The notes under the pieces were generated by a model that saw only the letters and a program-made list of their open reading frames with translations, made no database searches and was not told the origin of the DNA. 64,000 nt of DNA, taken from the NCBI GenBank assembly GCA_963725875.1, contig CAVRZZ010000004.1, positions 279,758 through 343,757 of the forward strand. Direction: 5' to 3'. Of this stretch, positions 477-38,274 are shown one piece after another (the first letter of the stretch is position 1; each line of letters begins with the position of its first letter). Source of the DNA: an uncultured Chloroflexia bacterium. Lineage in GTDB: Bacteria; Chloroflexota; Limnocylindria; Limnocylindrales; CSP1-4. The position numbers were made by a program, and so were the translations under genes.

Positions 477-1220
477 TCATCCGGCGGTCGCGGCCGCCGC
501 GAGCGCCGCAGCCACGGCCTGGACGTCCCGGTAGAACGCGGTGGCGCGGAGCCGGTCGGGGTCGCCCAGGCTCGCCTCGTATCCATCGTCGTAGGCGATC
601 ACCCCGAGGAGCGCCACGTTGCCGTCGTCGAGGCGGCCGCCGGCCCCCCCGGCCCCGTCGCCGTGGGCGAGGTTCGAGACCAGCCCGAGGACGGACAGGT
701 CCAGTCGCCGCAGGACCTCGAGGGTCTTGCGGGTCGTCACGAGCGTGAGCTCCGACGGCGTGGTGACCACGAGGTACTCCGCCCTGGGCAGGTACCGTGC
801 CGCGTCGAGCAGGGTGTCGCCGAAGCCGGGCGGCATGTCGACGACGAGGACGTCGAGGGCGTCCCAGATCGTGACCGCCAGCAGCTCCAGGATGGCGTTC
901 GTGACGTCGCTGCCGCGCAGGAGCGCGGGACGCTCGCCGACGATGCTCGCGATCGACATGAACGTGACGCCTGCGACCCGGTCGGGCACGAGGCCGCCGT
1001 CCTCGTGAAGCCCCGGGCGCGGGACGCCGAGAATCACGTGGTCTGACGGCCCCCAGAGGTCGAGGTCCAGCAGGCCGACACGCTGCCCGTCCGCGGCGAG
1101 GGCCAGGGACAGCCCGACGGCGACGGAGCTCTTGCCGATCCCTCCCTTGCCGCCGGTGATCGCCACCACGCGCCGCACGTCCCGAAGTCGCCGCTCGACC
1201 ACGGCCGGACGAGGATCCAC
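477..1220 (-). CDS. Mrp/MinD (ApbC/NBP35)-family P-loop ATPase; candidate ATP-type HypB-like partner of HypA
   Basis: Deviant Walker A 'ITGGKGGIGKSSVAV', 'LLDLDLWGPS', 'VVDMPPGFGD'. A GTG start lies 6 nt after the hypA stop. It is the C-terminal 248 aa of the 477..2474 ORF. Confidence 0.8.
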   Translation of the reverse strand: MDPRPAVVERRLRDVRRVVAITGGKGGIGKSSVAVGLSLALAADGQRVGLLDLDLWGPSDHVILGVPRPGLHEDGGLVPDRVAGVTFMSIASIVGERPALLRGSDVTNAILELLAVTIWDALDVLVVDMPPGFGDTLLDAARYLPRAEYLVVTTPSELTLVTTRKTLEVLRRLDLSVLGLVSNLAHGDGAGGAGGRLDDGNVALLGVIAYDDGYEASLGDPDRLRATAFYRDVQAVAAALAAAATAG

Positions 1221-1225
1221 CCGCG

Positions 1226-1630
1226 CTACCCGTTGACCGCGACGAGCGAGACACCCCGGCCGCCGGTCACGGCGAAGTCGGGGCTGGAGCAGGCGGGGCA
1301 GTCCACGTAGAGGCCGACCATCTCCGGCAGGAGGTGGATGTTCTCGCGCTCGTCCTCGGGCAGCGCCGCGAGGCTGTCCTGCAGCGTCCAGGACTGCCCA
1401 CACCGCCGGCAGGCGCACCGGGCCAGGTCGGTCTCGAAGGTGAACCGGGTGTCGGCCAGCTCGGGTGCCTGTGCCTGGGCGGCGCTCAGCCCGAACTCGA
1501 AGGCCCCCCGGTCGACCGACTGGAGCTCGCCGAGCCCGATGACGACCTCGCGGATCGTCGCGATGCTGCGCTCGCGGGCGACCTCGACCGCCTTCGCCAC
1601 CACCGCCTCGGCCAGGGCCCACTCGTGCAT
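1226..1630 (-). CDS. hypA: hydrogenase nickel-incorporation/maturation factor HypA
   Basis: Starts 'MHEWALAEAVV', 134 aa. Two Cys pairs, 'CACRRCG' and 'CPACSS', form the zinc site typical of HypA/HybF. Confidence 0.85.
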   Translation of the reverse strand: MHEWALAEAVVAKAVEVARERSIATIREVVIGLGELQSVDRGAFEFGLSAAQAQAPELADTRFTFETDLARCACRRCGQSWTLQDSLAALPEDERENIHLLPEMVGLYVDCPACSSPDFAVTGGRGVSLVAVNG

Positions 1631-5583: not shown

Positions 5584-6357
5584 CTACAGGTCGGCGACGT
5601 CGATGAGGCCGCGGCGGATCGCGTACTTAAGGAGCTCCACCCGGTCGTGGAACCCGAGCTTCTCCATCACGTTCGCCCGGTAGTTGTGGATCGTCTGCTC
5701 CGAGAGGTGGAGCGTCCGGGCGATCTCGCGGTTCGTGTGGCCGACGGCGGCCAGGAGCATCACCTCGCGCTCACGCTCGCTGAGCGACTCGTACGGATCC
5801 TCGAGCGCTCCGCCGGGCGTCTTGAGCACGTACGTGTTGACCATTCTTGTGACGATCGACGGGCTGACGTACGTCTGGCCCCGGCTGATCGAGCGAAGCG
5901 CCGTCACGAAATCCGAGGCCTGGGCCTCGCGCGTCAGGAAGCCGTCGGCGCCCGCCTTGATCGCCAGCGAGAACTGCTCGCTCGTGCAGCGGCACTCGAC
6001 GGCCAGGATCTTCATCGACGGCTTCGCGGCCCGCACCGCCTCGATCATCTGGAACGACGTGCAGCCCGACCGATCGTACGGCAGGCACTCGGTGATGACC
6101 ACGTCGGCGGGCGACTGCACGATCTCCTCGCGCATCGCGGTACGGTCGACGACCTCGCCGATCACCTCCATGTCGGGCTCGGCGTCGATCACCTCGCGCA
6201 GGCCGACGTTGAGCATTGGGAAGTCGAAGATGGCCAGGAGCACGCCCAGCCGCTTGCCGTTTCCCGGAACGTGCCCGTTCGTGCTCACGCCGACCTCGTC
6301 ACCTCGCGCAGGGCGCCAACCAAGAACGCCCGCGACGCGGGTATCACTATCGGCCAA
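5584..6357 (-). CDS. atypical NarL/FixJ-family response regulator (receiver-like domain plus LuxR HTH) lacking the phospho-acceptor Asp
   Basis: C-terminal GerE HTH 'LSEREREVMLLAAVGHTNREIARTLHLSEQTIHNYRANVMEKLG'. In the receiver domain the expected D is replaced: 'DVVITECLPYD' versus canonical 'DVVLMDLxMP'. The acidic pair is 'DF' and the conserved Lys is replaced: 'GFLTRE' versus canonical 'GYLxKD'. The true start may be an internal GTG near 6288. Confidence 0.8.
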   Translation of the reverse strand: MADSDTRVAGVLGWRPARGDEVGVSTNGHVPGNGKRLGVLLAIFDFPMLNVGLREVIDAEPDMEVIGEVVDRTAMREEIVQSPADVVITECLPYDRSGCTSFQMIEAVRAAKPSMKILAVECRCTSEQFSLAIKAGADGFLTREAQASDFVTALRSISRGQTYVSPSIVTRMVNTYVLKTPGGALEDPYESLSEREREVMLLAAVGHTNREIARTLHLSEQTIHNYRANVMEKLGFHDRVELLKYAIRRGLIDVADL

Positions 6358-6442
6358 CGGTGGGGGTGTCGACGTAGGGCCATCCGTCGCTTCCGGCGAT
6401 CCCTGTGGCCCCTTGCGGACGGGACGAGGGGCACCCCGGCCA

Positions 6443-6558
6443 GCGCCGAGGTACCGTGCCAGGTGCCGTTGACCGGTGCGAGTGCCGCCGCGCCGTGCCG
6501 GGACCGGCGCACCGTGCCGGGTGCCGTTGACCGGTGCGAGTGCCGCCGCGCCGTGCCG
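6443..6558. repeat. 58-bp perfect/near-perfect tandem direct repeat (x2) upstream of the response-regulator gene
   Basis: 'cgtgccaggtgccgttgaccggtgcgagtgccgccgcgccgtgccgggaccggcgcac' occurs twice in tandem. The ORFs at 6476 and 6534 share the identical N-terminus 'MRVPPRRAGTGA' as a consequence. Confidence 0.7.
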
Positions 6559-6600
6559 GGACCGGCGCGCAATGCCGGGGCCGAGGGCAAGTCCTGCCCG

Positions 6601-7377
6601 TCAGTTCGACTGGACCCCCTTGCCGTGGCAGAACGCGCACATCCCCTCGAACGCCTTCAGGTCGTGGGGCGCGACCCGCGGCTGGTCCGGCGACGGGAGG
6701 TGACACGACGTGCACTGCGCGTCCGTGCGCGTGGCGTGGTCCTCCGGCACGGCGCCGACCTTCGCCGCGACGTGACAGGTGAGGCACTTGCCGTCGGTCG
6801 GGGTCGGGTGCGGATAAGCCGCCGCCGGTTGCGAGGTCCCCTGGTGACAGAGGAAGCAGGTCGTCTCGGAGCGGCCCTTCATGCTGTCGGGCAGGGGGGC
6901 GATCGAGCCGTGGCAGGAGAGGCACTTCGAGTTCGCGGCCAGGGAGTGCGGGCGATCCTCGGCAGCCGGTGTCGTCGCCGTGTGGCAGACCAGGCATTGC
7001 TCGGCATGGATCCCGGTGTGGCCGGGCGCCGTCTGCACGAGCCGGTCGTTCGCGTGACACGACGTGCAGCTCCCCCAGCCCTCGAGCGGGTGACCGACCG
7101 GCGGCACGTTTGCCGTCGCGCCCGGCGTCTTGTGGCAGGCGGCGCAGTCGCTGGTCGGCATCACGGCAATCAGGTTGCCCCCCGACGGCGACGGCGCCGG
7201 CGTCGGCTGCTGCGTCGCCGTCGGCGAAGGGGTCGGCGACGGCGCCACGGCCTGCCGGTCGGCCAGTCCGACGTTGATCACGGCGAGCCCGATGCCCACG
7301 CCAACGCCGACCACGATCGCGACGGCAGCCAGGGCCAGGAGCATGCGGCCGATCTTGCGGGCCATCAGCGCGGCCAC
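6601..7377 (-). CDS. membrane-anchored octahaem c-type cytochrome
   Basis: N-terminal TM 'MLLALAAVAIVVGVGVGIGLAV', a Pro/Thr-rich linker 'PSPTPSPTATQQPTPAPSPSGG', and 8 CxxCH motifs (CAACH, CTSCH, CLVCH, CLSCH, CFLCH, CLTCH, CTSCH, CAFCH) in 258 aa. An alternative ATG at 7365 overlaps the NrfD stop (TGATG). Confidence 0.85.
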   Translation of the reverse strand: MAALMARKIGRMLLALAAVAIVVGVGVGIGLAVINVGLADRQAVAPSPTPSPTATQQPTPAPSPSGGNLIAVMPTSDCAACHKTPGATANVPPVGHPLEGWGSCTSCHANDRLVQTAPGHTGIHAEQCLVCHTATTPAAEDRPHSLAANSKCLSCHGSIAPLPDSMKGRSETTCFLCHQGTSQPAAAYPHPTPTDGKCLTCHVAAKVGAVPEDHATRTDAQCTSCHLPSPDQPRVAPHDLKAFEGMCAFCHGKGVQSN

Positions 7378-8948
7378 CCGTCACTGTCGGTGGCCCCGGC
7401 CTGGGGCGGGGTGCCGATGGACCGCCCGCCCGGTTCGACGCCCGGTTCGACGCCCGGTTCGACGCCCGGTTCGACGTGCGGATCGCTCAGCTCGGCGGGC
7501 GGCGCGACGGCGACGGCAGAGGCGGGGGCGACGGCGGTGGCCACCGGATCAACCGGCGACGGATCGACGGGCGTCGTCTCGACCGGCGCCGGATGGACCG
7601 GCCTTTCGTGCCCGTGACGGTCGTGAGCGGGCTTCGCATCCGTCCTGAGCTCCTCGTCCTCCGACTCCACCCAGGCCACACCCGCGTCCACCATGGAGGG
7701 CGCCGGTTGACTTGACGCGAGGAACCCGCCGGCGAGGTGGCCGGTGTGCTCGCCCATCGGCAGGTACCGCTCGGCAAGGGTGTAGGCCAGCCCGAAGAAC
7801 CCGAATGCGCCGAGCACGATCGCCGTCTCGACCAGCGTCGGCGCGTATTCCGCGAAGGGATCGGAGACGACGCCGCCGACGGCGGTCCCCGGGACGATCT
7901 GGCCGGCGCTGACGAAGATCGCGCGGTCCGCGAAGATCCCGAGGAAGACCAGGCAGCAGGTGGCGAAGAGTCCCGCCGGCGTCCGCGTCCGCGGCAGCAG
8001 CACGAGGACCAAGGGGACGACGAGCCCGAGGCCGATCCGAACGACCCAGAACCAGAACGCCAGCGGCCCGGCGAAGATGGCCCGGTTCGCGTCGGCGAGT
8101 CCGGGGATCGCCCCGTACATCCCCCACAGGATCTGCCAGACGATGACGAGCGCCATGACGACCAGCCCGATCGACATGAGGAGGCGTATCGCCGGGATCG
8201 CCAGGGTGAGGGCCCGCTCGTAGCCCGCCAGCCGGTAGCGGTGGACCAGGTAGAAGACGATCCCGAGGAGCGCCGTGCCCGAGAGGACCGCCATCGTCAC
8301 CATCGCCGGCGGCGTAAAGGCGCCGTGCCAGTACGGCCGGGCCGCCAGGACGGCGAAGACCGCGCCCAGCGTCGTCGGCGCCACGACCGCCGTGATCGAC
8401 GAGCAGACGCAGGCCCAGCGGTGGACGCCCCAGTGGTTGGTGAAGATGCTCCAGACCTCGACCATGAGGAACACCAGGTAGACGCCGTAGAAGACGCCCA
8501 TCCACCACATCGGCGAGAACGGCGACGGGCTGAGCACCGCGCCGAAGACCATGCTGATCGGGTAGTGGAGGTCGAGGGCGATGATCCCGAACGCGGTGAT
8601 GAGGGTCAGCAAGGCGAGGACCGCGTGCCGCTTCTCGAGCGGCAGGAACATCTCGATCCCGAACACGGTGCCCAGCGACGAGGCCAGGCAGAGGCCGCTC
8701 GTCGTGATCGCGAAGAAGGCGTACGCGGTGATGAGGATGCCCCATTCGAAGCTGGGGCTCGTCCCCAGGACCTCCCAGCCGGGGGGCAGGGCGAGCAGTG
8801 CCCCGACGGCGCCGATCGTGCAGAGGACGAGCAGGAAGGCGATCCATGCCTTGAGCGCGCGCGGCATGCTGGCGATGTCGTTGGCGGCGGCGCGCGCGGC
8901 TACCCGCGGGTCGAGGGTCAGGCGGCGCTCGGCGACCTGCGCGGTCAT
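7365..8948 (-). CDS. NrfD/PsrC-family polytopic membrane subunit (quinol-interacting) with a low-complexity cytoplasmic tail
   Basis: Starts 'MTAQVAERRLTL' with ATGA overlap onto the upstream gene. More than 10 predicted TM helices and a typical NrfD-like layout. The C-terminal tail carries (VEPG)4. Confidence 0.8.
   Translation of the reverse strand: MTAQVAERRLTLDPRVAARAAANDIASMPRALKAWIAFLLVLCTIGAVGALLALPPGWEVLGTSPSFEWGILITAYAFFAITTSGLCLASSLGTVFGIEMFLPLEKRHAVLALLTLITAFGIIALDLHYPISMVFGAVLSPSPFSPMWWMGVFYGVYLVFLMVEVWSIFTNHWGVHRWACVCSSITAVVAPTTLGAVFAVLAARPYWHGAFTPPAMVTMAVLSGTALLGIVFYLVHRYRLAGYERALTLAIPAIRLLMSIGLVVMALVIVWQILWGMYGAIPGLADANRAIFAGPLAFWFWVVRIGLGLVVPLVLVLLPRTRTPAGLFATCCLVFLGIFADRAIFVSAGQIVPGTAVGGVVSDPFAEYAPTLVETAIVLGAFGFFGLAYTLAERYLPMGEHTGHLAGGFLASSQPAPSMVDAGVAWVESEDEELRTDAKPAHDRHGHERPVHPAPVETTPVDPSPVDPVATAVAPASAVAVAPPAELSDPHVEPGVEPGVEPGVEPGGRSIGTPPQAGATDSDGWPR
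7425..7480. repeat. 12-bp microsatellite (cccggttcgacg)x4 inside the 3' end of the NrfD-family gene
   Basis: Read directly. Encodes VEPGVEPGVEPGVEPG on the minus strand. Confidence 0.5.
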
Positions 8949-9820
8949 CAGACCACCTCGCCTTCGAGGCCGGTGTACCAGACCCGCGGCCGCGTGCCCA
9001 GGCCCGGCTGCATCTGCCGGACCCGCTTTTCCGTGAGGGCGACGCTCACCTGGCTGGCCGGGTCGCGGAGGTCGCCGAAGATCCGGGCGTTGACCGGGCA
9101 GGCCTCGGCGCAGGCCGGCTCCATCCCGCGCGTGATCCGGTGGTAGCAGAAGGTGCACTTGTCCACCACGCCGGCCACGCCCTTGGGCGTGGACTCGCCG
9201 GCGGGGACGATGTAGCGCGCACCGTACGGGCAGGCGACGATGCAGTATCCGCACCCGATGCAGCGGCCCTCGTCGACGAAGACCACCCCGTCCTCGGCCC
9301 GGAACGTGGCGCTGACCGGGCAGACCCACGTGCAGGGCGGGTTCTCGCACTGCATGCACGTCCGCGGCACGAAGTAGGCATCCCGGATGTCCGCCGGCAC
9401 GCCCGCGTCCTCGGCCGGGAAGCCCTGGCGCCCGCCCTCGGGAGAGGTGATGGTGACGGTCCCGTCCTGGGCGAGGACGTGGAGCTCCACCCAGGTCCGG
9501 TTGATCTCGTCGTCCTCGGGCACGTGGTTCTCGAGCTTGCACGCCTCGACGCAGCGGCCGCAGCCGATGCACGTGGTTGTGTCGATGACGAACGCCCAGT
9601 CGTGGGCCGAGGGGTCGTAGTCCGGGACGGGCGGCACCGGCTCGATCGGCGCCGGCTCGGCCGCCCGCGCGGCCTCTCGCGGCGTGCCGAGCGCCGCCGA
9701 GAGCAGCCTCGCGCCGCACAGCGCGGGGACGGCTGCCAGGCCGACCTGCAGCACGCGCCGCCGCGACAGCGTCGCGCGGGCCACCTGCTCGTCGGTGCCG
9801 GCGATGTCGGTGTCGCTCAT
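8948..9820 (-). CDS. Tat-exported NrfC/PsrB-like 4Fe-4S ferredoxin subunit
   Basis: Twin-arginine signal 'LSRRRVLQVGLAAVPALCGA'. Four Cys clusters (CIGCGRCVEAC, CMQCENPPCTWVCP, CIGCGYCIVACP, CTFC...CAEACP) as in CISM-family iron-sulfur subunits. Confidence 0.85.
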   Translation of the reverse strand: MSDTDIAGTDEQVARATLSRRRVLQVGLAAVPALCGARLLSAALGTPREAARAAEPAPIEPVPPVPDYDPSAHDWAFVIDTTTCIGCGRCVEACKLENHVPEDDEINRTWVELHVLAQDGTVTITSPEGGRQGFPAEDAGVPADIRDAYFVPRTCMQCENPPCTWVCPVSATFRAEDGVVFVDEGRCIGCGYCIVACPYGARYIVPAGESTPKGVAGVVDKCTFCYHRITRGMEPACAEACPVNARIFGDLRDPASQVSVALTEKRVRQMQPGLGTRPRVWYTGLEGEVV

Positions 9821-9830
9821 CGGGACGCTC

Positions 9831-10484
9831 CTACTGGCCGGCCGTGGGCCGCTGGTGGCACGTGAGGCAGACGGCGTCGGCGACCTCCTCGTGTCCGACG
9901 GGGACGGGCTTGAGGCCGGCGGGCTTGTGGCAGGTGATGCAGGCGGGCAGGCTGTCGAGGGCATGCGAGATCTCGGGCGGCCGCACCGCGCTCGCTGCGT
10001 GGCTGTCGTGACAGCCGAGGCAGGGCCCACCCGCGTAGTGGAGGTCCAGGTCGACGACCGGGAAGGCGAGCGGCCTGCCGGGCACCTGCGCGTGGCAGAG
10101 CACGCACAAGTCGGCCGTCGGGGTCTCGATCTCGGCGGCCGCCGCGGCGGCGGCGGCCGCGTCGGTGGCCGTCGCCGCGTGCTTCGCGAGCGGGCCGTGA
10201 CAGCTGTCGCAGGCGACCGTCGCGTGGGCCGACGCCTGCCAGGGCGTGTACTCGGGGAGGTGGCAGGCCTGGCAGACCGCCGGGTCCGCGTACTGCGGGG
10301 CCAGGGCCGCCCACGACCGGGCGCTCTCCTCCGGGTGGTAGCCGAACTCGCCGTAGGCCCACGACGCTGCGACGGCCGCCACGCCGGCGACGGCGACCAG
10401 GGCCACACCCGCCACGGCCAGCCCGATCACGCCCTTCCAGCTCGTGGGGCGCAGCCGCCGCGCGACGGCCCGGAGCTGCGTCAC
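9831..10484 (-). CDS. membrane-anchored hexahaem c-type cytochrome (NrfB/ActA-like)
   Basis: The GTG start overlaps the response-regulator stop (GTGA). N-terminal TM 'GVIGLAVAGVALVAVAGVAAVAA'. Six CxxCH motifs (CQACH, CDSCH, CVLCH, CLGCH, CITCH, CLTCH). Confidence 0.85.
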   Translation of the reverse strand: MTQLRAVARRLRPTSWKGVIGLAVAGVALVAVAGVAAVAASWAYGEFGYHPEESARSWAALAPQYADPAVCQACHLPEYTPWQASAHATVACDSCHGPLAKHAATATDAAAAAAAAAEIETPTADLCVLCHAQVPGRPLAFPVVDLDLHYAGGPCLGCHDSHAASAVRPPEISHALDSLPACITCHKPAGLKPVPVGHEEVADAVCLTCHQRPTAGQ

Positions 10485-11185
10485 AGCTCGGCCGCCTGGA
10501 TGACACCGCGGCGCAGGGCGTACCTGAGGAGGTCCACCCGGTCGTGGAAGCCGAGCTTCTCCATGATCGTGGCGCGGTGGTTGTGCACGGTCTGCTCGGA
10601 GACGTGGAGGGCCCGCGCGATCTCGCGGTTCGTGTGCCCGAACGCCGCGAGGCGCAGGATCTCCCGCGAGCGCTCGCTGAGCGCGTCGTAGGCGTCGGCC
10701 GCCACATCCTCGGGTGGCCGGAGGACGTACGTGTTGACCATTCGGGTGACGATCGCGGGGCTGAGGTACGTCTCGCCCCGCAGGATCCGGTGCACGGCGT
10801 CGAGGACGTCCGACGGCTGCGCCTCGCGGGTCAGGAAGCCGTCGGCCCCGGCCTTGATGGCGAGGGAGAACTGCTCGCTGCCGCAGCGGCACTCGATCGC
10901 CAGGATCTTCGCCGCCGGCTTTGCCGCCCGGATCGTCTCGATGGCCTGGGACGAGACGCAGCCGGTGCCGTCATAGGGGAGGCACTCCGTGATGACGACG
11001 TCGGCCGTCGATCGGGCCACGTCGTCGCGCAGCGCTGCGGGATCCTCGAGGACGCCGACGACGTGGAGGTCGGGCTGGGAGTCGATGACGGCGCGGTACC
11101 CGGCGACGAGCGCCGGGAAGGTGGCGATGCCCAGGAAGACGCCCAGCCGCTGGCCGTCGACCGGCGCGGGCCCACGGTCTCCCAT
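10481..11185 (-). CDS. atypical NarL/FixJ-family response regulator, paralogue of the 5584..6357 gene, also lacking the phospho-acceptor Asp
   Basis: Same 'DVVITECLPYD', 'ILAIECRC' and 'GFLTREAQ' substitutions. The acidic pair is 'AT'. LuxR HTH 'LSERSREILRLAAFGHTNREIARALHVSEQTVHNHRATIMEKLG'. Confidence 0.8.
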   Translation of the reverse strand: MGDRGPAPVDGQRLGVFLGIATFPALVAGYRAVIDSQPDLHVVGVLEDPAALRDDVARSTADVVITECLPYDGTGCVSSQAIETIRAAKPAAKILAIECRCGSEQFSLAIKAGADGFLTREAQPSDVLDAVHRILRGETYLSPAIVTRMVNTYVLRPPEDVAADAYDALSERSREILRLAAFGHTNREIARALHVSEQTVHNHRATIMEKLGFHDRVDLLRYALRRGVIQAAEL

Positions 11186-11206: not shown

Positions 11207-11533
11207 TCAGCCCTGGGTCGCGGCGCCGTGCGCCCGCTTGTGCAGCACGACTGCCCACACCACCGGCGTGGCAGCCAGGATGATCGCGCTCAGGACCACG
11301 CTGACGGTCGCAGCTTCCTTTCCGACGAAGAAGAGAAGGCCGTAGGTGGCGATGAAGAGGACGATGAAGAGGACGGCCATGCTGAGCACCGTGAGCGCCA
11401 GCCACGGCACGATCAGCGATCGCGCGCCGCCGCCGCCGGGCACGCGCATCAGGGCCACGCCCACGACGAGCAGCCAGATCAGGATCGCTGCCAGGACTCC
11501 AACGCTGTCCATGTCCGTGTCCTCGTCACCCAT
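11207..11533 (-). CDS. small integral membrane protein (3 predicted TM helices), hypothetical
   Basis: 'MGDEDTDMDSVGVLAAILIWLLVVGVALM...'. It lies 21 nt upstream of the response-regulator gene on the same strand. Supported only by hydrophobicity and position. Confidence 0.45.
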   Translation of the reverse strand: MGDEDTDMDSVGVLAAILIWLLVVGVALMRVPGGGGARSLIVPWLALTVLSMAVLFIVLFIATYGLLFFVGKEAATVSVVLSAIILAATPVVWAVVLHKRAHGAATQG

Positions 11534-13519: not shown

Positions 13520-14962
13520 TTGCCGCCGAGGGATGGCATGGCCCACGCCACGAGCAGGGGCGCCTACGGGCACCTCGCGGATCGCCTGAACCGCTTCCCG
13601 CAGGGAGCCCCCCCGTCCGACCTCCTGTACCGCATCCTCGCGCTTCTCTTCAGCGAGCGCGAGGCGGGGCTGGTCGCCCGCCTTCCGATCAAGCCGGTCA
13701 CGCCGGTCGCCGCGGCCCGGATCTGGAAGACGAGCGAAGCCGAGGCGCGCCGCGTGCTCGACGGGCTGGCCTCGCGTGCCGTGCTCCTCGACACGGAGGG
13801 CCCGGACGGGGTCGTCTACATCCTCCCGCCGCCGATGGCCGGCTTCTTCGAGTTCTCGATGATGCGGGTCCGCGACGACGTCGACCAGAAGCTCCTCAGC
13901 GAGCTCTTCTACCAGTACCTCACCGTCGAGGATGACTTCATCCTCAACCTGTTCACCCACGGACAGACGCAGCTCGGACGCGTCTTCGTCAACGAGCCCG
14001 CGCTCGCCGAGAGTGCGGACCGTGCGGCGGGCCCCGGATCCGGTCGTGCGAGCGCCACCGCGGCGCGCCTGTCGGCCGCCCGGCCGCCGGGTGCCGAGCC
14101 GTCGGGTGCCCGGCGGCCGCGTGCCGAGCCGCCTGGTGCCCGGCCGCCCCGTGCCGATGCCGGGCTTCACGTCCTCGACTACGAGCGCGCCAGCGAGGTG
14201 ATCGGCACCGCCGAGCACATGGGCGTCGGCACCTGCTACTGCCGCCACAAGATGGAACACCTGGGGCGGGCGTGCAGCGCCCCGCTGGGGATCTGCATGA
14301 CGTTCGGAGGCACGGCCGACGCGCTGATCCGCCACGGCTACGCCCGGCGCGTCGACCGGACCGAGGGGATGGACCTGCTCCAGGAGGCGTACGACCACAA
14401 CCTCGTCCAGTTCGGCGAGAACGTGCAGCGCTCGGTCAACTTCATCTGCAACTGCTGCGGCTGCTGCTGCGAAGCGATGATCGCGGCTCGCCGGTTCGGG
14501 ATGCTCGACCCGGTGCACACGACCAACTTCCTGCCGCACGTCGGCGACGAGGTCTGCAACGGCTGCGGCAAGTGCGTCGACGCCTGCCCGGTGGAGGCGA
14601 TGACGCTCGTCTCGGCGAACGATCCGGCCAAGCCCCGCAAGCGCCGGGCCTCCCTCGACGCCGACATCTGCCTGGGGTGCGGCGTCTGCACGCGCGTCTG
14701 CCCGACGAAGGGGCTCTGGCTGGAGGCCCGTGCACAGCGCGTGGTCACGCCGGTCGACACGCTCCACCGGACGGTGCTCATGGCGATCGAGCGCGGGCGG
14801 CTCCAGGACTGCATCTTCGACAACCGGGCGCTCTTCAGCCACCGGGCGATGGCGGCGATCCTGGGCGTGATCCTCCGCCTGCCTCCGACGAAGCAGGTCC
14901 TGGCCACGGAGCAGATGCGCTCGCGCTACCTCGTGAAGATCCTGGAGCGGGCCAGCTTCTAG
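13520..14962 (+). CDS. winged-helix plus 4Fe-4S ferredoxin-domain protein with Cys-rich 'CNCCGCCCE' motif (putative Fe-S redox/regulatory protein)
   Basis: N-terminal wHTH-like 'LLYRILALLFSEREAGLVARL...ARRVLDGLASRAVLL'. Two ferredoxin motifs 'CNGCGKCVDACP' and 'CLGCGVCTRVCP'. Extra Cys clusters 'CYCRHK' and 'CNCCGCCC'. Confidence 0.8.
   Translation: MPPRDGMAHATSRGAYGHLADRLNRFPQGAPPSDLLYRILALLFSEREAGLVARLPIKPVTPVAAARIWKTSEAEARRVLDGLASRAVLLDTEGPDGVVYILPPPMAGFFEFSMMRVRDDVDQKLLSELFYQYLTVEDDFILNLFTHGQTQLGRVFVNEPALAESADRAAGPGSGRASATAARLSAARPPGAEPSGARRPRAEPPGARPPRADAGLHVLDYERASEVIGTAEHMGVGTCYCRHKMEHLGRACSAPLGICMTFGGTADALIRHGYARRVDRTEGMDLLQEAYDHNLVQFGENVQRSVNFICNCCGCCCEAMIAARRFGMLDPVHTTNFLPHVGDEVCNGCGKCVDACPVEAMTLVSANDPAKPRKRRASLDADICLGCGVCTRVCPTKGLWLEARAQRVVTPVDTLHRTVLMAIERGRLQDCIFDNRALFSHRAMAAILGVILRLPPTKQVLATEQMRSRYLVKILERASF
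14085..14160. repeat. imperfect in-frame tandem repeat encoding (A)RPPGAEPSGARRPRAEPPGARPPRA inside the Fe-S protein gene
   Basis: 'ccgggtgccgagccgtcgggtgcccggcggccgcgtgccgagccgcctggtgcccggccgccccgtgcc' read directly. It forms a low-complexity insertion between the N-terminal domain and the Fe-S domain. Confidence 0.4.
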
Positions 14963-22479: not shown

Positions 22480-25400
22480 CTACTTCGTCCCCCGCCGGAC
22501 CTCCTCGATGTCGCCGAGCACCCCGCCCAGGCTGACCTCCCCCCACGTCAGGTAGGTCAGCGTCGCCTGCGCGAATGCCGCCGCGAGCGGGGTCGGCATG
22601 AGATCGGAGGCTGCGACGCGGAAGGTCGCCGCGCGCAGGGCGCTCCGCAGACGTTCGCCTTCCCGACCCGTGACCTCGTCCAGCCGGACCGCCGGGTCCG
22701 TCGGGCCCGTCGGCCAGATGCCGGCCGGTACGAGGGCCGTCGTCGCCGCGGCGGCGAACTGGTCGTCGAGCAGGAGGTCGACGAAGCGGCGCACCTCGGG
22801 GCGGTCGTGGAAGACCACCACCGTGAAGGCCCGCCCCCGGACCTCGTCGGCGTACGCCGGGTCGCCCGCCGGGAAGGGGAAGGCTGCGAGGGTGGCGGAC
22901 CCGCCCGCGGGCCATGCCGCCCGATCCGTCCCGCCCGCGAGGTGAAGCCAGCATTCGGGTGGGTCGACGAACATGGGCCACGCGGCGATCGCCTCCGGTG
23001 TACGGAGGGCGGAGGCCACGCCGCCGAGCACGTAGCCGTCCCGGAATGCGAGGTTGCCGAGCGCCAGGAACGCGCTCCGCACCGGGTCGCCTGTGAAGGA
23101 TTCCCTGCCCGCGGCCAGCGCTTCGAAGGTGCGGGGACCGGCCGTGTGGAGCACGACCTCCTCGATGAATGCGACGCCGCCTGCTCCGGAGTCGGACCCG
23201 GCCTCGATGCCGAGGCACCAGGGCGTTCGACCCTCGGCGACCATGCGTTCGGCGAGCTTCGCCAGGTCGTCCGAGGACCGAGGGACGGCGTACCCGGCGC
23301 GCTCGAATGCCACCTTCGGGTACCAGACCAGGCTCTCCGCCTCGGTTGCGAATGGCGCGCCGAACAGGCGGCCGTCGGCGGCCGGCCAGGTGCCGTCGGC
23401 GCCGACGGTCCCCAGTCGCACGAGGTAGTCGCCGGCGATCGCGCGGAGCCGTGCGACGTCGACGAAGCCGGACATGTCCACCAGCAGGCCGGCCCGCGCC
23501 AGCTCGGCCACGAGGCCCGGCCGCGAGACGATCGCGACGTCGGGCAGATCTCCCGCCGCGACACGCGCCTCGAGATCGCCGTCTGCGGCGGTCGCCCCGG
23601 TCACGTCGATGCCCGTCTCGTTCTCGAACGCGGAAACGACGGGGGCCAGGTCCACCTGCAGCTGCGAAACCGCCTCCACCCGCGACCCGGCGAGCGATCG
23701 GCTCGCGAGGCGCTCGACGGGAACGACGCCCGATGCCGTGTACACGTCCTCCACGGACGAGCCGGCGGCCGACGTCGTCGAGCATGCCTCGCGATGGAGG
23801 TACGTTCGGCACTCGCCGGGCGTGAGACCACGGCCGGCTGCCGTCGCCGCCAGGGTCATGAGCAGCTCCGGTGCCAGCAGCATGACGCCGCGCGGGTCGC
23901 CCGGGCCGGCTCGGACGGCAACGGGCGCCGCGCTTGCCGGATACGCGATGTGGGACGCCTGGAGCGCCCAGTGCAGGGCGTCCATGGCCTCCTCGACGAC
24001 GTAGCCCCGGTCGGACGTCGCGTCGGCGGCCTGCCATGCCAGCAGCAGGCTGAGCTGTGGATCCGTGCCCAGGTTCCCGATCGAGGCGGCCGCCAGCTCG
24101 CGGGCAGAGGCGAGCGCCCCCTTCTCCCGGGCGGCCTCGCCCTGCCCGTACACGACGACCGACAGCGACGTCGCGACGAGAGCCGCGATGGCCAGCACCG
24201 CCACGAGGGCACGCAGACGGGTCGTCGCGCGGCGCTCGAGTGCGCGCTCGTGCGCGACCTGGGTCGCGGCCGCCTCGTCCAGCCGGCGCCGCTCTGCGTC
24301 GCTCGCGTCGAGCAGCTGGCGCTCCGGGAGGTCCAGGCGCAGGTCGGTCGAGGCAGCCCACGACGCGAAGAGACCAAGCCGGCTCCCGGAGAGCAGGTAG
24401 CCCGGGTCGCGCCCCGAACGGATCCAATCGGCTGCCGCGTCCGCCAGTCGGCGGCGCGTCCAGAGATCCTCGCGCGCCTCCTCGATCCACCCGCCCAGGC
24501 GCGGCCAGCGGGCCAGGAGCGCCTCGTGGGCGACCAGGACGAACGGCTCGCCCGTCACGGCGTCGCGGTCGAACGACAGGAGGCGCCCACGGCCAAACGC
24601 GTCGAGCGCCTCGTCGATGGGCCGTTGATCGTCGGCGAGGGTGCGGAGCTCCGATCGTGCGACCCGCCGGGCCGTCGGTTCGCCGGACTCGCCCGGCACG
24701 ACGAGGCGAAGGAAGGCCTGGCGGGAGATCTCGCGGCCCTCGGCATCCAGGCCGGCGTAGACGTCATCGGCCCGACGGCCGAGCGCCCCCAGCACGCCGC
24801 CGACCGCCGCATACGCCTCGCGCGTCAGACGCTGCCCGTCGCTCCGCTCGAAGAGCTCGGTGAGGGCGTACTGGAGGAGGGGGAGCTCCCCGGGCTGACG
24901 GGCGACATCGGCAATCACCTCGGTCGCGAGTCCCGGTTCAAGGTCGACCCCGACCGACCCCGCCGGTCGCACGATGGCGCGCTCCAGCTCGTCGCGCGTG
25001 AGGGGCGTGACCAGCTCCGTGCCGGCGCGGACCAGCTCCCCGAGCCCGGGGGAGCGGAGCGGACGATCGAGGAAGTCCGCGCGCAACGTGGCGACGACCA
25101 GGAGCCGGCTCTCACGGGCCGAGAGTGCCTCGACGAGCCCCGCGAGGAAGCTCGTCCGCTCGGCCTCGTCGTCGACGAGCGACCAGAGCTCCTCGATCTG
25201 GTCGACCACGAGCACCAGGTGCGCAACGTCATCGGGAAGGGCTAGGGCGACTGCGCCGGCAAGGTCGTGACGCAGCCGTTCGGCGTCCTCGTGCGGGGCG
25301 CCAGACCCAGCCGCGCCGAGAGCCGCCGCGAGCTCGCGGAACGGCCGAGCCCCCGGCAGCATCACGGCGATCGGCCAACCCTCGGAGCCCGCCAGCGCGC

Positions 25401-26382
25401 CGCTGCGGATGGCCGGGACCAGGCCGGCCCGGACGGCGCTGGACTTGCCGCTGCCGCTCGGGCCGACGACGACGAGGAGCCGGCCGGCTCGGGCCACGTC
25501 CCCCAGGCGCTCGACCAGGCGGGCGACGAGCGCCTCCCGGCCGAAGAAGTCGGGGCTGTCCGCCTCCGAGAACGGCCGCAGGCCCTTGTACGGGTTGCGG
25601 GCCCTGCGCTGCCGCGCCGGCACCTCGAGTCGCCGGTCCTGGCGCAGGATCCAGCCCTCGAGCTGCTGGAGCTCGGGGCCCGGGTCGATGCCGAGCTCGC
25701 CACCCAGCATGCGGCGACCTTCGCCGTAGGTCCGGAGCGCCTCCGCCTGCCGCCCGGCCCGATAGAGCGCGACCATGAGCTGGCCGCGCAGGCGTTCGCG
25801 CAGGGGTTCCTGCGCGACGAGCGCCTGGAGCTCGTCGATCACGTCGGGATGCCGGCCAAGCGCGAGGTCGGCCTCCATCCGGTCCTCCAGGGCCCGCAGG
25901 TGGAGCTCGTCCAGGCGCCGGATCTCGGGCTGGACGAACGACTCGTCGGCCAGCTCGGCATACGCCGCGCCGCGCCACAGTGCCAGAGCCTCGTTGAAGT
26001 GCGTGCGGGCCGTCTCGGGATCGCCGGCGAGGACGGCACGCCCCTGCGAGGCCAGCCGCTCGAAGCGGACCGCATCGATCCGGACCGGCTCCACCCGCAG
26101 GACATAGCCGGCCGGCTCCGTCGCCAGGACTCCGTTCAATGAGCCCCGCGACCGTCCCGGGTCCAACGCGTCGCGGAGCCGGGAGACGTGGAAGGCGACG
26201 GTCTTGGCGCCGCTGTCCGGGGGCTCGTCGCCCCACAGCTCGTCGATGATCCGCTCGGCGGAGACGACGCGGTTCGCGTGGATGACGAGGAACGCGAGCA
26301 GGGCCAGCTGCCGGCCTGAGGCGACCGTGAGCCGCCGGCCGTCCTCGACGACCTCGACCGCGCCCAGGACGCGGAACTCCAT
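22480..26382 (-). CDS. one-component membrane regulator: SARP/OmpR-type winged helix + BTAD + NB-ARC/STAND P-loop ATPase + TM helix + C-terminal extracytoplasmic solute-binding (SBP_bac_1-like) domain
   Basis: 'MEFRVLGAVEVVEDGRRLTV...' is SARP/AfsR-like. Walker A 'VVVGPSGSGKSS'. TM 'LRALVAVLAIAALVATSLSVVVY'. C-terminal 'LVWYPKVAFERAGYAVP...TPWCLGIEAG...AAFPFPAG' resembles sugar ABC substrate-binding proteins. 1300 aa. Confidence 0.85.
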   Translation of the reverse strand: MEFRVLGAVEVVEDGRRLTVASGRQLALLAFLVIHANRVVSAERIIDELWGDEPPDSGAKTVAFHVSRLRDALDPGRSRGSLNGVLATEPAGYVLRVEPVRIDAVRFERLASQGRAVLAGDPETARTHFNEALALWRGAAYAELADESFVQPEIRRLDELHLRALEDRMEADLALGRHPDVIDELQALVAQEPLRERLRGQLMVALYRAGRQAEALRTYGEGRRMLGGELGIDPGPELQQLEGWILRQDRRLEVPARQRRARNPYKGLRPFSEADSPDFFGREALVARLVERLGDVARAGRLLVVVGPSGSGKSSAVRAGLVPAIRSGALAGSEGWPIAVMLPGARPFRELAAALGAAGSGAPHEDAERLRHDLAGAVALALPDDVAHLVLVVDQIEELWSLVDDEAERTSFLAGLVEALSARESRLLVVATLRADFLDRPLRSPGLGELVRAGTELVTPLTRDELERAIVRPAGSVGVDLEPGLATEVIADVARQPGELPLLQYALTELFERSDGQRLTREAYAAVGGVLGALGRRADDVYAGLDAEGREISRQAFLRLVVPGESGEPTARRVARSELRTLADDQRPIDEALDAFGRGRLLSFDRDAVTGEPFVLVAHEALLARWPRLGGWIEEAREDLWTRRRLADAAADWIRSGRDPGYLLSGSRLGLFASWAASTDLRLDLPERQLLDASDAERRRLDEAAATQVAHERALERRATTRLRALVAVLAIAALVATSLSVVVYGQGEAAREKGALASARELAAASIGNLGTDPQLSLLLAWQAADATSDRGYVVEEAMDALHWALQASHIAYPASAAPVAVRAGPGDPRGVMLLAPELLMTLAATAAGRGLTPGECRTYLHREACSTTSAAGSSVEDVYTASGVVPVERLASRSLAGSRVEAVSQLQVDLAPVVSAFENETGIDVTGATAADGDLEARVAAGDLPDVAIVSRPGLVAELARAGLLVDMSGFVDVARLRAIAGDYLVRLGTVGADGTWPAADGRLFGAPFATEAESLVWYPKVAFERAGYAVPRSSDDLAKLAERMVAEGRTPWCLGIEAGSDSGAGGVAFIEEVVLHTAGPRTFEALAAGRESFTGDPVRSAFLALGNLAFRDGYVLGGVASALRTPEAIAAWPMFVDPPECWLHLAGGTDRAAWPAGGSATLAAFPFPAGDPAYADEVRGRAFTVVVFHDRPEVRRFVDLLLDDQFAAAATTALVPAGIWPTGPTDPAVRLDEVTGREGERLRSALRAATFRVAASDLMPTPLAAAFAQATLTYLTWGEVSLGGVLGDIEEVRRGTK

Positions 26383-31240: not shown

Positions 31241-32488
31241 GTGACCACGAACCAGGCAAGCCATCGACTGCTGGCAGGCCCGCCCCCGGCCGGGGACGCC
31301 GAGCGTCTCGAGACGCACCGGGCCAGGCTCGGTCCCCTCCCGCGCTCCGGTGACCGCCGCGATCTCATCGCGAGCCTCGAGGCGAGCGGCCTGCTGGGGC
31401 GAGGCGGCGCCGGGTTCCCGGTGGGGCGCAAGTGGCGCGCCCTCGCGGAGCGCAGCCACGGCCGGGCCGTCGTCGTCGCCAACGGCGCCGAGGGCGAGCC
31501 GGGCAGCGCGAAGGACCGGGTCCTGATGTCCTACCGGCCGCACCTGGTGGTCGACGGCGCCGTCCTCGCCGCCGACGCCATCGGCGCGGGCGAGATCGTC
31601 TTCTACGTCGGCCGCGAGCACGGTTCCGCGGTCGCCTCGATCGCCCGGGCGATCGAGGAGCGGAAGGCCGAGGTCCGCCAGCCGATGCGCCTCGTGACGG
31701 CGCCGATCGGCTACGTCGCCGGCGAGGCCTCAGCGGCGGTCCACTACATCAACAGCGCGGACGCCCGGCCGATCACGACGCCGCCCCGCGTGTCCGAGCG
31801 GGGCGTGGCCGGCCGTCCGACGCTCGTCCAGAACGTCGAGAGCCTCGCCTACGCGGCCCTCATCGCCCGGTTCGGGGAGGAGTGGTACCGCTCGGCGGGC
31901 CGGCTCCAGTCCCGGGGAACGGCCCTCGTCACGGTCACCGGGGCCGTGCGCGAGCAGGGCGTCCGCGAGATCGAGCTGGGAACGACGGTCGGGGAGGTGG
32001 CCACGGCCGCCGGCGGCATCTCCAGCGGCGTCCAGGCGGTCGTGCTGGGAGGCTACTTCGGGACGTGGGCCCGGGCCGGCGACGCCTGGGGCCTGCCGCT
32101 CGACCCCGCCGTGATGCGGGCGCACGGCCTGACGTTCGGCTGCGGGATGGTCGGCCTGCTGCCCACCGACGTGTGCGGCGTGTCGGCCACGGCCGAGATC
32201 ATGGCGTTCATGGCGGAGGAGAGCGCGGGCCAGTGCGGCCCGTGCGTCTTCGGGCTGCGAGCGATCGGGGACGCGACGCGGCGGATCGCGGACGGTGTCG
32301 CGGGCGCCGCGGAGCTCGGCGACGTCGAGCGGTGGACGGCGCAGGTCCCCGGGCGCGGCGCGTGCCACCACCCCGATGGCGCGGTCCAGCTCATGGTCAG
32401 CGCCCTCAACGTCTTCGGCGACGAGTTCGCCCGCCACGCGCGAACCGGCCGGTGCTCGGTCACGGGCTCGCGCGTCGAGGTGGCCTGA
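31241..32488 (+). CDS. NuoF-like (complex I 51-kDa family) NAD(H)-binding flavoprotein with SLBB and 4Fe-4S domains, stand-alone
   Basis: 'GLLGRGGAGFPVGRKW' matches the NuoF 'GRGGAGFPTGxKW'. C-terminal Cys cluster 'CGPCVFG...GACHHPDG'. The GTG start has a GGAG RBS. Confidence 0.8.
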   Translation: MTTNQASHRLLAGPPPAGDAERLETHRARLGPLPRSGDRRDLIASLEASGLLGRGGAGFPVGRKWRALAERSHGRAVVVANGAEGEPGSAKDRVLMSYRPHLVVDGAVLAADAIGAGEIVFYVGREHGSAVASIARAIEERKAEVRQPMRLVTAPIGYVAGEASAAVHYINSADARPITTPPRVSERGVAGRPTLVQNVESLAYAALIARFGEEWYRSAGRLQSRGTALVTVTGAVREQGVREIELGTTVGEVATAAGGISSGVQAVVLGGYFGTWARAGDAWGLPLDPAVMRAHGLTFGCGMVGLLPTDVCGVSATAEIMAFMAEESAGQCGPCVFGLRAIGDATRRIADGVAGAAELGDVERWTAQVPGRGACHHPDGAVQLMVSALNVFGDEFARHARTGRCSVTGSRVEVA

Positions 32489-32489
32489 G

Positions 32490-32711
32490 ATGGACCGCAG
32501 GCTCCGCGTGGACTGGATCAAGTGCGACGGCTACGGACTGTGCGGCGACCTCGCCCCGGATCTCATCGACCTCGACGACTGGCGGTACCCGGTCATTCGC
32601 CCGGGCGCGGTCGATCGCGGCGACCTGCACGACGCCCAGCGGGCCGTCGACTGCTGTCCGATGGGAGCGCTCATCCTCGAGCAGGTGCCCGCGGACCGGC
32701 GGACGGCCTGA
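32490..32711 (+). CDS. small ferredoxin (single-cluster, 3Fe-4S/4Fe-4S type)
   Basis: 73 aa. 'MDRRLRVDWIKCDGYGLCGDLAPDLIDL...VDCCPMGAL'. The start is 1 nt after the NuoF-like stop. Confidence 0.7.
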   Translation: MDRRLRVDWIKCDGYGLCGDLAPDLIDLDDWRYPVIRPGAVDRGDLHDAQRAVDCCPMGALILEQVPADRRTA

Positions 32712-37998: not shown

Positions 37999-38274
37999 AT
38001 GAAAAGTATCGGTGTAACGGAGCTGCGCCAGCGGACGGCGGAGATCCTCGAGTCGCTTCACGACGCCGAAGAGCCGGTCGCGATCCTGCAGCGTTCGCAG
38101 ACGACCGCCTACCTGGTTGATGCGAGGCGCTACGAAGCCGAGCGCGACGAGCTGCGTGCTGCTCGACGGGCCCTCTTCCTGCGCGAGGTCCGAGAGGCCG
38201 AGGCCGAGTACGCCGCCGGCGACTCGTCGGACTACGCGGACATGGACGCCCTCCTGGCGGACCTCCGCGGCTGA
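37999..38274 (+). CDS. type II antitoxin, Phd/YefM family
   Basis: 'MKSIGVTELRQRTAEILESLHDAEEPVAILQRSQTTAYLVDARRYEAERDELRAARRA', 91 aa. Confidence 0.8.
   Translation: MKSIGVTELRQRTAEILESLHDAEEPVAILQRSQTTAYLVDARRYEAERDELRAARRALFLREVREAEAEYAAGDSSDYADMDALLADLRG

Follow-up and report, generated by a model that had tools for sequence, protein, structure and literature searches.

A compact NrfCD-type gene module with two multihaem cytochromes in Chloroflexota of the Limnocylindria: a candidate quinone-pool:cytochrome c oxidoreductase

Complexes built on the NrfCD pair are a major, partly charted link of quinone pools to redox chemistry outside the membrane. NrfCD complexes without a catalytic subunit are not unusual, as exemplified by Nhc and Qrc (PMC8076601). 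Related subunits are found in alternative complex III (ACIII; structures 6BTM, 6F0K, 6LOD and 8K9E). In Methanoperedenaceae (ANME-2d), clusters of NrfD, 4Fe-4S and multihaem cytochrome genes were proposed to encode menaquinone:cytochrome c oxidoreductases for extracellular electron transfer; one of these clusters is upregulated on electrodes, and the archaeal NrfD reportedly groups with sequences from Chloroflexota (Dehalococcoidales) (PMC7327174, PMC10874420). For Carboxydothermus ferrireducens, a Gram-positive bacterium that reduces iron, a role as quinol oxidases was proposed for multihaem cytochromes with domains of molybdoenzyme anchors of the CISM family (PMC7829351). Here we describe a compact NrfCD-type module found in a 64-kb stretch of contig CAVRZZ010000004.1, from an uncultured Chloroflexia bacterium. 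The whole stretch, of G+C content 72-75%, is referred to below as the window. Its genes were called by codon usage and by the translations of its open reading frames (ORFs), yielding 49 genes.

The multihaem module proper spans positions 6601-10484 of the minus strand and codes for a hexahaem cytochrome c, an NrfC-like protein, an NrfD-like protein and an octahaem cytochrome c. Its best-supported interpretation is that of a self-contained quinone-pool:multihaem-cytochrome c oxidoreductase built on an NrfCD redox module. Judged from its gene content, it belongs with the loosely defined NrfD-type menaquinone:cytochrome c oxidoreductase clusters. We tentatively favour, at somewhat less than even confidence, a menaquinol:multihaem-cytochrome oxidoreductase that would pass electrons outward to extracellular or wall-associated acceptors. 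The genes of the conserved unit to which the module belongs, and the features downstream of it, are the following:

11207..11533, minus strand: small membrane protein, 108 residues, with 3-4 transmembrane helices predicted by hydropathy; first gene of the conserved unit
10481..11185, minus strand: regulator A, NarL/LuxR-family response-regulator-like protein, 234 residues (GerE 67.2 bits)
9831..10484, minus strand: membrane-anchored hexahaem cytochrome c, 217 residues, with 6 CxxCH motifs and one N-terminal transmembrane helix
8948..9820, minus strand: NrfC/PsrB-type four-[4Fe-4S] ferredoxin with its own twin-arginine translocation (Tat) signal, 290 residues (Fer4_11 71.8 bits)
7365..8948, minus strand: NrfD/PsrC-family membrane subunit of the 10-helix ActC type, 527 residues (PF03916 72 bits)
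6601..7377, minus strand: membrane-tethered octahaem cytochrome c, 258 residues (from GTG 7377) or 254 residues (from ATG 7365), with 8 CxxCH motifs
6453..6583, no strand assigned: 58-bp tandem repeat, 2.3 copies, 93% match, within the 312 nt that separate the octahaem gene from regulator B
5584..6288, minus strand: regulator B, paralogue of regulator A, 234 residues (GerE 70.8 bits), downstream of the operon

A preliminary description of this DNA, made from the letters and ORF translations, had taken the whole of 5584-11185 as the cytochrome module. This range is too wide, both its ends being paralogous LuxR/NarL-type regulators (GerE 67-71 bits). The gene content that it gave for the four structural proteins, namely a membrane-anchored hexahaem cytochrome, a Tat-exported four-cluster ferredoxin, an NrfD/PsrC-type subunit and an octahaem cytochrome, was borne out by motifs, transmembrane helices and Pfam matches. 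The genes had also been said to be coupled through GTGA, ATGA and TGATG overlaps. TGATG is present at both the nrfC/nrfD and the nrfD/octahaem junctions. The GTGA stop/start overlap exists as well, joining regulator A to the hexahaem gene and not two of the structural genes, while no ATGA overlap occurs in the window: the hexahaem and nrfC genes are separated by a 10-nt spacer containing GGAG. Throughout the six frames of the window, only the hexahaem and octahaem ORFs contain at least two CxxCH motifs.

Relatives of the NrfD-like protein were found at 123 places in a genome collection covering 185,579 species. Eighty loci were kept, with flanks of up to ~10 kb on each side, and the genes of all loci were clustered. 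They come almost exclusively from Chloroflexota metagenome-assembled genomes. Finer labels, where present, are for the most part Candidatus Limnocylindria or Limnocylindrales; of three loci labelled otherwise, two are assigned to Anaerolineaceae and one to Candidatus Sulfomarinibacteraceae. The host had been regarded as actinobacterial-type, an assignment that the provenance of these relatives contradicts. The closest NrfD relative is 86% identical, and identity across the loci goes down to ~50%. The window's own genome is absent from the collection, and public assemblies gave no exact match to its NrfC protein. The gene order is fixed (small membrane protein, regulator, hexahaem cytochrome, NrfC, NrfD, second cytochrome) and the neighbourhoods beyond it vary. 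NrfD is present in all 80 loci, NrfC in 78, the regulator in 70, the hexahaem cytochrome in 68 (with 6 CxxCH in 65), the second cytochrome in 66 and the small membrane protein in 60, genes missing from these counts being mostly due to short contigs. A 4-nt overlap joins the regulator and hexahaem genes in 53 of 64 loci and likewise the NrfD and second-cytochrome genes (53/64); at most of the related junctions examined (about 64-76) the overlap is of 4 nt or 1 nt. Overlapping genes here and in the relatives argue for stoichiometric co-production of the encoded proteins. Some genomes have two paralogous modules (for instance L013 and L022, L041 and L043, L072 and L075).

The absence of a catalytic subunit, already remarked in the preliminary description, extends to the relatives. 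Among the 49 window genes there is no molybdopterin domain (PF00384, PF04879), no NrfA-type protein (CxxCK) and no ActB1, ActD, ActE or ActF, and no catalytic gene is conserved within 10 kb of the module in the ~80 loci. The flanks of those loci have no molybdopterin, NrfA-like, haem-copper oxidase, CuA, Rieske or NiFe-hydrogenase signatures. The remaining part of the window is likewise free of molybdopterin-enzyme, haem-copper oxidase, Rieske and NiFe-hydrogenase signatures. Sulfur-metabolism and DsrMK-like genes were found neither in the window nor in the flanks.

The NrfD-like protein matches PF03916 over residues 60-352 with 72 bits, well above the cut-off of 25.8. Its predicted fold is haem-free and consists of two four-helix-bundle repeats plus two extra helices, as in ActC, QrcD and DsrP; it is presumed to carry the quinone/quinol site. 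Fold comparison places it closest to ActC and ActF of ACIII, the Chloroflexus complex included. By sequence no PDB match was obtained, either with the single protein or with a 39-sequence profile. Its C-terminal tail (~415-527) is of low complexity and varies in length among homologues; a perfect 12-nt repeat of 4.2 copies (window 7427-7476) encodes the VEPG repeats of this tail. A profile search of 1.84 billion protein representatives retrieved only 1,647 proteins with E<=1e-3, of which 169 reach E<=1e-30. The family proper comprises about six full-length clusters at 50% identity. The next tier scores ~140-300 bits, and the members of it that were scanned weakly resemble DsrP, HmcC and QrcD. 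In the three contexts examined for that tier (L083-L085), which belong to Desulfuromonas soudanensis, Clostridiales PH28_bin88 and one metagenome contig, the NrfD-like protein is the anchor of an operon that codes for a molybdopterin A subunit, an iron-sulfur B subunit and the NrfD-type C subunit.

These outgroup operons are relevant to an explanation that we consider improbable, namely that the module is the anchor and electron supply of a terminal reductase encoded elsewhere, be it an NrfA-, MccA- or Otr-type haem enzyme or a molybdoenzyme. NrfCD pairs do serve a separate catalytic cytochrome in NrfABCD and MccACD (PMC8076601), and the kinship with molybdopterin-enzyme anchors seen in the three contexts is matched by the NrfC-like protein, whose nearest PDB relative is PsrB. 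However, a catalytic gene is never linked to the module in ~80 loci with differing neighbourhoods and flanks of up to 10 kb on each side, the operon already has two cytochromes of its own, and neither of them has a CxxCK motif. Moreover, the iron-sulfur subunit of the outgroup operons is only ~185 residues long, whereas here it has 290 residues and its own Tat signal.

This NrfC-like protein has all the features of an exported four-cluster ferredoxin: a Tat motif (SRRRVL), 16 Cys distributed over four cluster motifs and the Fer4_11 match. The 16 Cys are conserved in homologues, 52 of 68 of which have a Tat-like motif (SRR.FL). The best NCBIfam model is DsrO (191.7 bits, cut-off 200), followed by TtrB, NrfC, ArrB, HybA and QrcC, all far below their cut-offs. 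In the PDB the best match is PsrB (2vpw_B, 9e-44), and ActB chains of ACIII are matched at ~1e-20 to 1e-23. The last cluster motif (CTwCYHR) has a conserved Tyr right after its second Cys, and a Tyr at the equivalent position of QrcC (Y113) is essential (PMC13059093).

The hexahaem cytochrome is anchored by a transmembrane helix at residues 19-37, from which a well conserved linker of 35 residues leads to the first haem. All six CxxCH motifs are invariant across an alignment of 52 homologues, as are H87, H102, H149, H162, H174 and H198. Six motifs matched by six extra invariant His indicate bis-His ligation, so that every haem of this protein is probably bis-His ligated. In the second cytochrome the first five CxxCH are invariant across 54 homologues; such invariance in both families implies that the motifs are not due to chance. 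The family profile of the hexahaem protein has as its top PDB match the decahaem MtrA (6r2q_A, E 3.9e-8), then the N-terminal part of octahaem nitrite reductases, cytochrome c554 and NrfB; the Pfam matches are Cytochrom_c3_2 and Cytochrome_C7. Its homologues are annotated throughout as hypothetical or generic cytochromes.

A conserved Tyr in NrfC and a hexahaem partner are both features that recall Qrc and thus an operation of the module in the opposite sense, towards electron uptake. The cytochromes would then collect electrons from extracytoplasmic donors, for instance Fe(II), reduced humics, or a hydrogenase or formate dehydrogenase that is exported, and NrfCD would reduce menaquinone with uptake of cytoplasmic protons, conserving energy. 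We judge this rather unlikely. In its favour, Qrc and Nhc, in which multihaem cytochromes are the sole peripheral partners of NrfCD, run in that direction (PMC8076601, PMC13059093), and the Tyr matching the essential Y113 of QrcC appears conserved (PMC13059093). A hypA gene and a gene for an Mrp/ApbC-like P-loop NTPase also lie at the left edge of the window (477-1630, minus strand), ~4-5 kb beyond the conserved unit, and suggest that genes for the maturation or the structural subunits of a hydrogenase are clustered immediately beyond the window's edge. QrcA is likewise a hexahaem cytochrome. The all-bis-His, low-potential chains are compatible with uptake but give no preference for it. Against uptake stand the weak QrcC match (114 bits, cut-off 400), the lack of a QrcD match and the absence of QrcB. 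The hydrogenase-maturation genes are linked to the module in only two of ~80 loci (the window and L010), with unrelated genes between, so that we regard a functional link to them as weak, and no flank of the 80 loci has a hydrogenase or formate dehydrogenase structural gene.

The second cytochrome of the window has its 8 CxxCH motifs at residues 78-247, spaced by ~24 residues, and a transmembrane helix at residues 16-34. The preliminary description of this protein as an octahaem cytochrome of 258 residues with a membrane helix and a Pro/Thr linker holds for the haem motifs, the helix and the linker. Homologues favour initiation at ATG 7365 over GTG 7377, making 254 residues the likelier length, and the octahaem state is only a clade-specific extension. 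Of the 66 homologues, 45 are pentahaem, 17 octahaem and 3 heptahaem proteins. They share a conserved pentahaem core to which the extra haems are added C-terminally. According to this alignment the pentahaem form is the ancestral state, and the octahaem form of the window's clade is a C-terminal extension by three haems. Within the core H96, H120 and H124 are invariant, a His is found at 144/145 and M166 is near-invariant; Met166 suggests that one haem has His/Met ligation and possibly a higher potential. The linker between the membrane helix and the first haem has a median length of 44 residues (range 36-88), 40% of which are Pro, Thr or Ser. The contrast between this variable linker and the well conserved 35-residue one of the hexahaem protein suggests that of the two the hexahaem protein would be docked and proximal, and the second cytochrome mobile and distal. 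The second-cytochrome profile gave marginal PDB matches to NrfB, MtrA and the transmembrane region of ActA (E ~0.006-0.01), and a specific kinship to ActA was dropped as unsupported by such matches.

Two kinds of variant enlarge or rearrange the cytochromes. Loci L062 (552-2372) and L057 (4940-6904) encode 24-haem cytochromes in which an N-terminal part corresponding to the hexahaem subunit is followed by c7-type repeats. In L062 this protein, whose N-terminal third is the hexahaem subunit, is encoded directly before nrfC-nrfD and the usual second cytochrome is missing, while L057 holds such a gene as an extra one. Fusions of NrfD to a cytochrome are also found among the relatives: P0244 (679 residues, 8 CxxCH), P0243 and P0017 (locus L007). 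The P0244 fusion looks genuine; P0017, P0256 and P0259 have frameshift-like stretches and may be assembly errors. The fusions keep the cytochrome's own transmembrane helix, consistent with an NrfD that ends in the cytoplasm. A haem number that varies only distally (5, 7 or 8, and 24 in L062) is the pattern that would be expected of an extendable electron wire.

The fold of NrfD and the putative His/Met haem could also be read as signs of a complex-III substitute, in effect a stripped-down ACIII. Menaquinol would be oxidized in the same way, and the tethered second cytochrome would shuttle electrons to a terminal oxidase of the membrane or to denitrification enzymes. This alternative is less than likely, though the most probable of the rivals to outward flow. 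The fold relationship to ActC and ActF includes the Chloroflexus complex, and the act operon has the order actA-actB-actC...actE, which the succession cytochrome, iron-sulfur protein, NrfD, cytochrome parallels. The near-invariant Met166 could give a higher-potential exit haem like that of ActE, the flexible Pro/Thr linker suits a tethered shuttle such as the anchored cytochromes c of monoderms, and the lineage in which the module is conserved is represented largely by genomes from soil. On the other hand, ACIII genes often adjoin oxidase genes, while no haem-copper oxidase, CuA or Rieske signature was detected within ~10 kb of the module in the 80 loci. The defining ActB1 domain and ActD, ActE and ActF are absent as well. 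It is difficult to see why a short transfer to an oxidase would call for expansion to 8 or 24 haems, and two paralogous modules per genome are unexpected for a housekeeping complex III.

In the outward reading that we tentatively favour, menaquinol would be oxidized near the outer face of the 10-helix, cofactor-less NrfD. Electrons would pass through the four [4Fe-4S] clusters of the exported NrfC into the membrane-anchored, putatively all-bis-His hexahaem cytochrome docked on it, and from there to the second cytochrome, with its pentahaem core (here 8 haems), its own membrane helix and its flexible ~45-residue Pro/Thr/Ser linker. In a Chloroflexota cell of monoderm type, this distal cytochrome would deliver them past the membrane to acceptors that are most likely extracellular or wall-associated, for instance Fe(III)/Mn(IV) minerals, humic quinones or other cytochromes. 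For the regulator and the small membrane protein, a role in controlling the operon's expression or assembly is probable. The gene content, the cofactor motifs, the topology signals, the fold of NrfD, the structure of the operon and its conservation in the lineage are observed, whereas the physical assembly of the complex, the order of the cytochromes, the direction of electron flow, the quinone, the acceptor and any proton translocation are inferred. Outward flow is favoured by the self-contained nature of the module, with haems added only at the distal ends (up to 24), by its membrane-tethered cytochromes, as in monoderm systems, and by its complete set of cofactor motifs and export signals, conserved across 52-69 homologues. 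It is further favoured by the clusters of the same content in Methanoperedens, for which this function was proposed with transcript support, and by the similar proposal for Gram-positive iron reducers (PMC7829351). The idea of a conduit from the quinone pool to the exterior of a monoderm-type envelope, put forward in the preliminary description, was reasonable and gains support from the 24-haem version and the NrfD-cytochrome fusions.

Several considerations weigh against outward flow. Electron direction is not readable from sequence, and Qrc and Nhc use this NrfCD module for quinone reduction (PMC8076601, PMC13059093). A Pro/Thr linker of ~45 residues is as consistent with a tethered shuttle as with an arm through the cell wall, which it need not cross, while a His/Met haem at Met166 would also suit transfer to an oxidase. 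In the related loci, no gene for a porin, an S-layer protein or a surface cytochrome accompanies the module consistently. The AlphaFold2 model of the hexahaem cytochrome, obtained from a 67-sequence alignment, is too poor (pLDDT 60.3, pTM 0.33) to inform on its putative docking on NrfC. The literature found on Limnocylindria, which are uncultured, does not address metal reduction.

The regulator genes are an integral part of the picture. The GerE helix-turn-helix is intact in both proteins, whereas their Response_reg matches (23.1 bits for regulator A, 27.4 bits for regulator B) are below the cut-off of 30.2. When the receiver pocket is compared with that of VraR, the phospho-acceptor Asp is replaced by Glu, the Thr by Glu or Cys and the Lys by Arg, and there is no N-terminal acidic pair; neither regulator thus has the intact phospho-acceptor pocket of a canonical NarL-family receiver. 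The family has conserved Cys (ECxP...GC and CRC). Regulator B, the more conserved paralogue (77-92% identity in close loci), is found mainly in the 8-haem clade, after the second cytochrome. It is unusual for a receiver-degenerate regulator to be translationally coupled, as here in over 80% of the loci, to a structural gene of respiration, and one possibility for its role is autoregulation, perhaps redox-responsive. Homologues of the small membrane protein are encoded immediately upstream of the regulator, the gap being typically of 13-14 nt; they share few conserved residues, and no match to the window's protein was found in Pfam, NCBIfam or PHROGs. The 58-bp tandem repeat between the octahaem gene and regulator B has no copy in any related locus. 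It is thus a local feature of the window's genome, and its interpretation as a conserved regulator-binding array was discarded on the same ground. A broader proposal can be formulated for the lineage, although it is a doubtful one: Limnocylindria, a widespread class, would generally have a minimal, wall-reaching wire from menaquinol to the exterior, made of NrfCD and two tethered multihaem cytochromes and extendable up to 24 haems. It would serve respiration of minerals or humics, or electron exchange, in the absence of oxygen, and would be switched on by a Cys-bearing, phosphorylation-independent LuxR-type regulator that is translationally coupled to the structural genes and senses redox state directly.

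Beyond the conserved unit, four loci have a System II cytochrome c biogenesis cluster adjoining the module (L014:13445-19691, L017:5772-10394, L050:1419-8148 and L053:116-2364). These clusters code for TPR/CcmH-like, CcdA, ResB, ResC/CcsA and ResA-like thioredoxin proteins, and the same four loci add a NapC/NirT-type membrane decahaem cytochrome and a PCYCGC/CYCXC-family protein. The remainder of the window codes for regulators, proteases, cell-wall enzymes and a NuoF-like protein. The latter is a stand-alone flavoprotein (218 bits, below the NuoF cut-off) followed by a 73-residue single-cluster ferredoxin, the two together spanning 31241-32711 of the plus strand; no other complex I genes are present in the window. 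A 474-residue protein (13538-14962, plus strand) combines a conserved N-terminal part with a two-[4Fe-4S] ferredoxin domain close to the C-terminus. It was considered as a partner of the module and set aside: it is syntenic only in ~13 close loci, divergently placed, and its two-cluster matches are generic. A cyclic di-GMP-II (GAG variant) riboswitch aptamer (48105-48189, plus strand; 66.9 bits, gathering score 40) is located directly upstream of a subtilase (S8) gene (48185-49390) and slightly overlaps its called start. Two large signalling proteins are encoded on the minus strand, a 1300-residue fusion of a Trans_reg_C winged helix, BTAD, an nSTAND1 NTPase and a solute-binding-protein domain (22480-26382) and a 771-residue STAND-like NTPase with a LuxR helix-turn-helix (40874-43189). 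At 37999-38539 (plus strand) a Phd/YefM antitoxin gene is followed by a gene with a YafQ-toxin match below threshold (26.7 bits, cut-off 30), and the two may form a type II toxin-antitoxin system. The sequence flanking this pair, between ~38 and ~44 kb, is lower in G+C (~68-69%) than the rest of the window. Two paralogous AlkZ-like DNA glycosylases are encoded at 36763-37917 (minus strand) and 62305-63405 (plus strand).

The module represents a compact version of NrfCD without a molybdopterin-like subunit, with a small sequence family of its own, fixed in an abundant uncultured lineage of Chloroflexota known mostly from soil and freshwater. Should it prove to be an electron outlet, extracellular electron transfer would join the predicted physiology of common soil and freshwater bacteria; should it replace complex III, a new substitute of that kind would. 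The module would also offer a small system of four subunits in which to study the coupling of NrfD quinol chemistry to cytochrome wires in cells with a single membrane. The translational coupling of a regulator gene within a respiratory operon is of interest in its own right.

In its putative mode of action the module resembles ACIII, Qrc, Nhc and DsrJOP, and it shares parts with several of the described systems, yet it differs from each in defining features. It was proposed in the preliminary description to be neither canonical Nrf, Psr/Ttr, Qrc nor ACIII, a view upheld by NCBIfam scores far below cut-offs, the absence of a molybdopterin-like domain and the single NrfD-like subunit. With ACIII, a complex also present in Chloroflexota, it shares a four-cluster iron-sulfur protein on the periplasmic side, homologous to the ActB2 part (E ~1e-20 to 1e-23) and the position of an N-anchored multihaem cytochrome gene just upstream of the iron-sulfur gene, with a second cytochrome gene downstream. 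It lacks the molybdopterin-like ActB1, its 290-residue iron-sulfur protein holding Fer4 domains only. There is one NrfD-like gene in each of the 80 loci instead of ActC and ActF, its sequence too diverged for a PDB sequence match, and ActD, ActE and ActG are missing. The cytochromes have 6 and 5-8 haems as compared to 5 and 1, with an insignificant ActA match (E 0.01-0.5) and no monohaem cytochrome, and the sole other membrane protein is the unrelated one of 108 residues.

Qrc, Nhc and Hmc, cytochrome c3:menaquinone oxidoreductases of sulfate reducers, resemble the module in that multihaem cytochromes are the sole redox subunits besides NrfCD, without a substrate-converting site; Nhc and Hmc also include a small extra membrane subunit (PMC8076601). 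The differences from Qrc are a QrcC score of 114.1 bits for a cut-off of 400, no QrcD match at E<=0.01 and no molybdopterin-like QrcB. As for Hmc and Nhc, HmcB scores 97.6 bits for a cut-off of 420, HmcC is not matched, and there is no 16- or 9-haem subunit of the cytochrome c3 family, the cytochromes here having 6 and 8 haems and resembling MtrA and NrfB by profile. Both cytochromes are membrane-tethered here, as suits a monoderm, whereas these systems use soluble periplasmic cytochrome c3, and the direction of electron flow is probably opposite to that of Qrc and Nhc. DsrJOP provides the best curated models for both subunits (DsrO 191.7 bits, cut-off 200; DsrP 51.6 bits) and has the same arrangement of a membrane-anchored cytochrome c with NrfC-like and 10-helix NrfD-like proteins. 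Compared to DsrMKJOP, however, the DsrP score is far below its cut-off of 350, no DsrM or DsrK is encoded nearby, and the cytochromes have 6 and 8 haems instead of the three of DsrJ. NrfABCD differs by its CxxCK motif, absent from both cytochromes, by an NrfC score of 141.4 bits for a cut-off of 377.6 and by the lack of a match to NrfD TIGR03148. The Psr/Ttr/Arr group is approached through the iron-sulfur subunit, nearest to PsrB in the PDB, and through the NrfD outgroup (~300 bits) that anchors molybdopterin operons. A molybdopterin subunit is absent from the window and the 80 loci, the cytochromes taking the place of the catalytic subunit, and relative to Psr/Ttr the iron-sulfur subunit is ~100 residues longer, with its own Tat signal.

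The Methanoperedenaceae clusters are alike in gene content: NrfD-like, four-[4Fe-4S] and multihaem cytochrome proteins (two 7-haem cytochromes in one cluster) in a single-membrane cell. The archaeal clusters add a b-type cytochrome and unknown genes and have neither a LuxR-type regulator nor the small membrane protein, and the present host is a bacterium of Limnocylindria type, from a lineage recovered largely from soils. Carboxydothermus ferrireducens has in common with the module a proposed quinol-oxidizing entry to extracellular electron transfer in a monoderm, to which the P0244 fusion may be added. Its cytochromes are single fused polypeptides without a hexahaem/NrfC pair, and their anchor is not named NrfD (PMC7829351). 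The novelty claimed for the architecture therefore stands in part: clusters of the same content had been described in Methanoperedenaceae, while no description of such a cluster was found in the literature for Limnocylindria/Ellin6529 or any Chloroflexota, and papers retrieved for complex III in Limnocylindria were all unrelated. The module stands out chiefly by the lineage that hosts it, by the minimal set of its subunits and by the regulator embedded among its genes.

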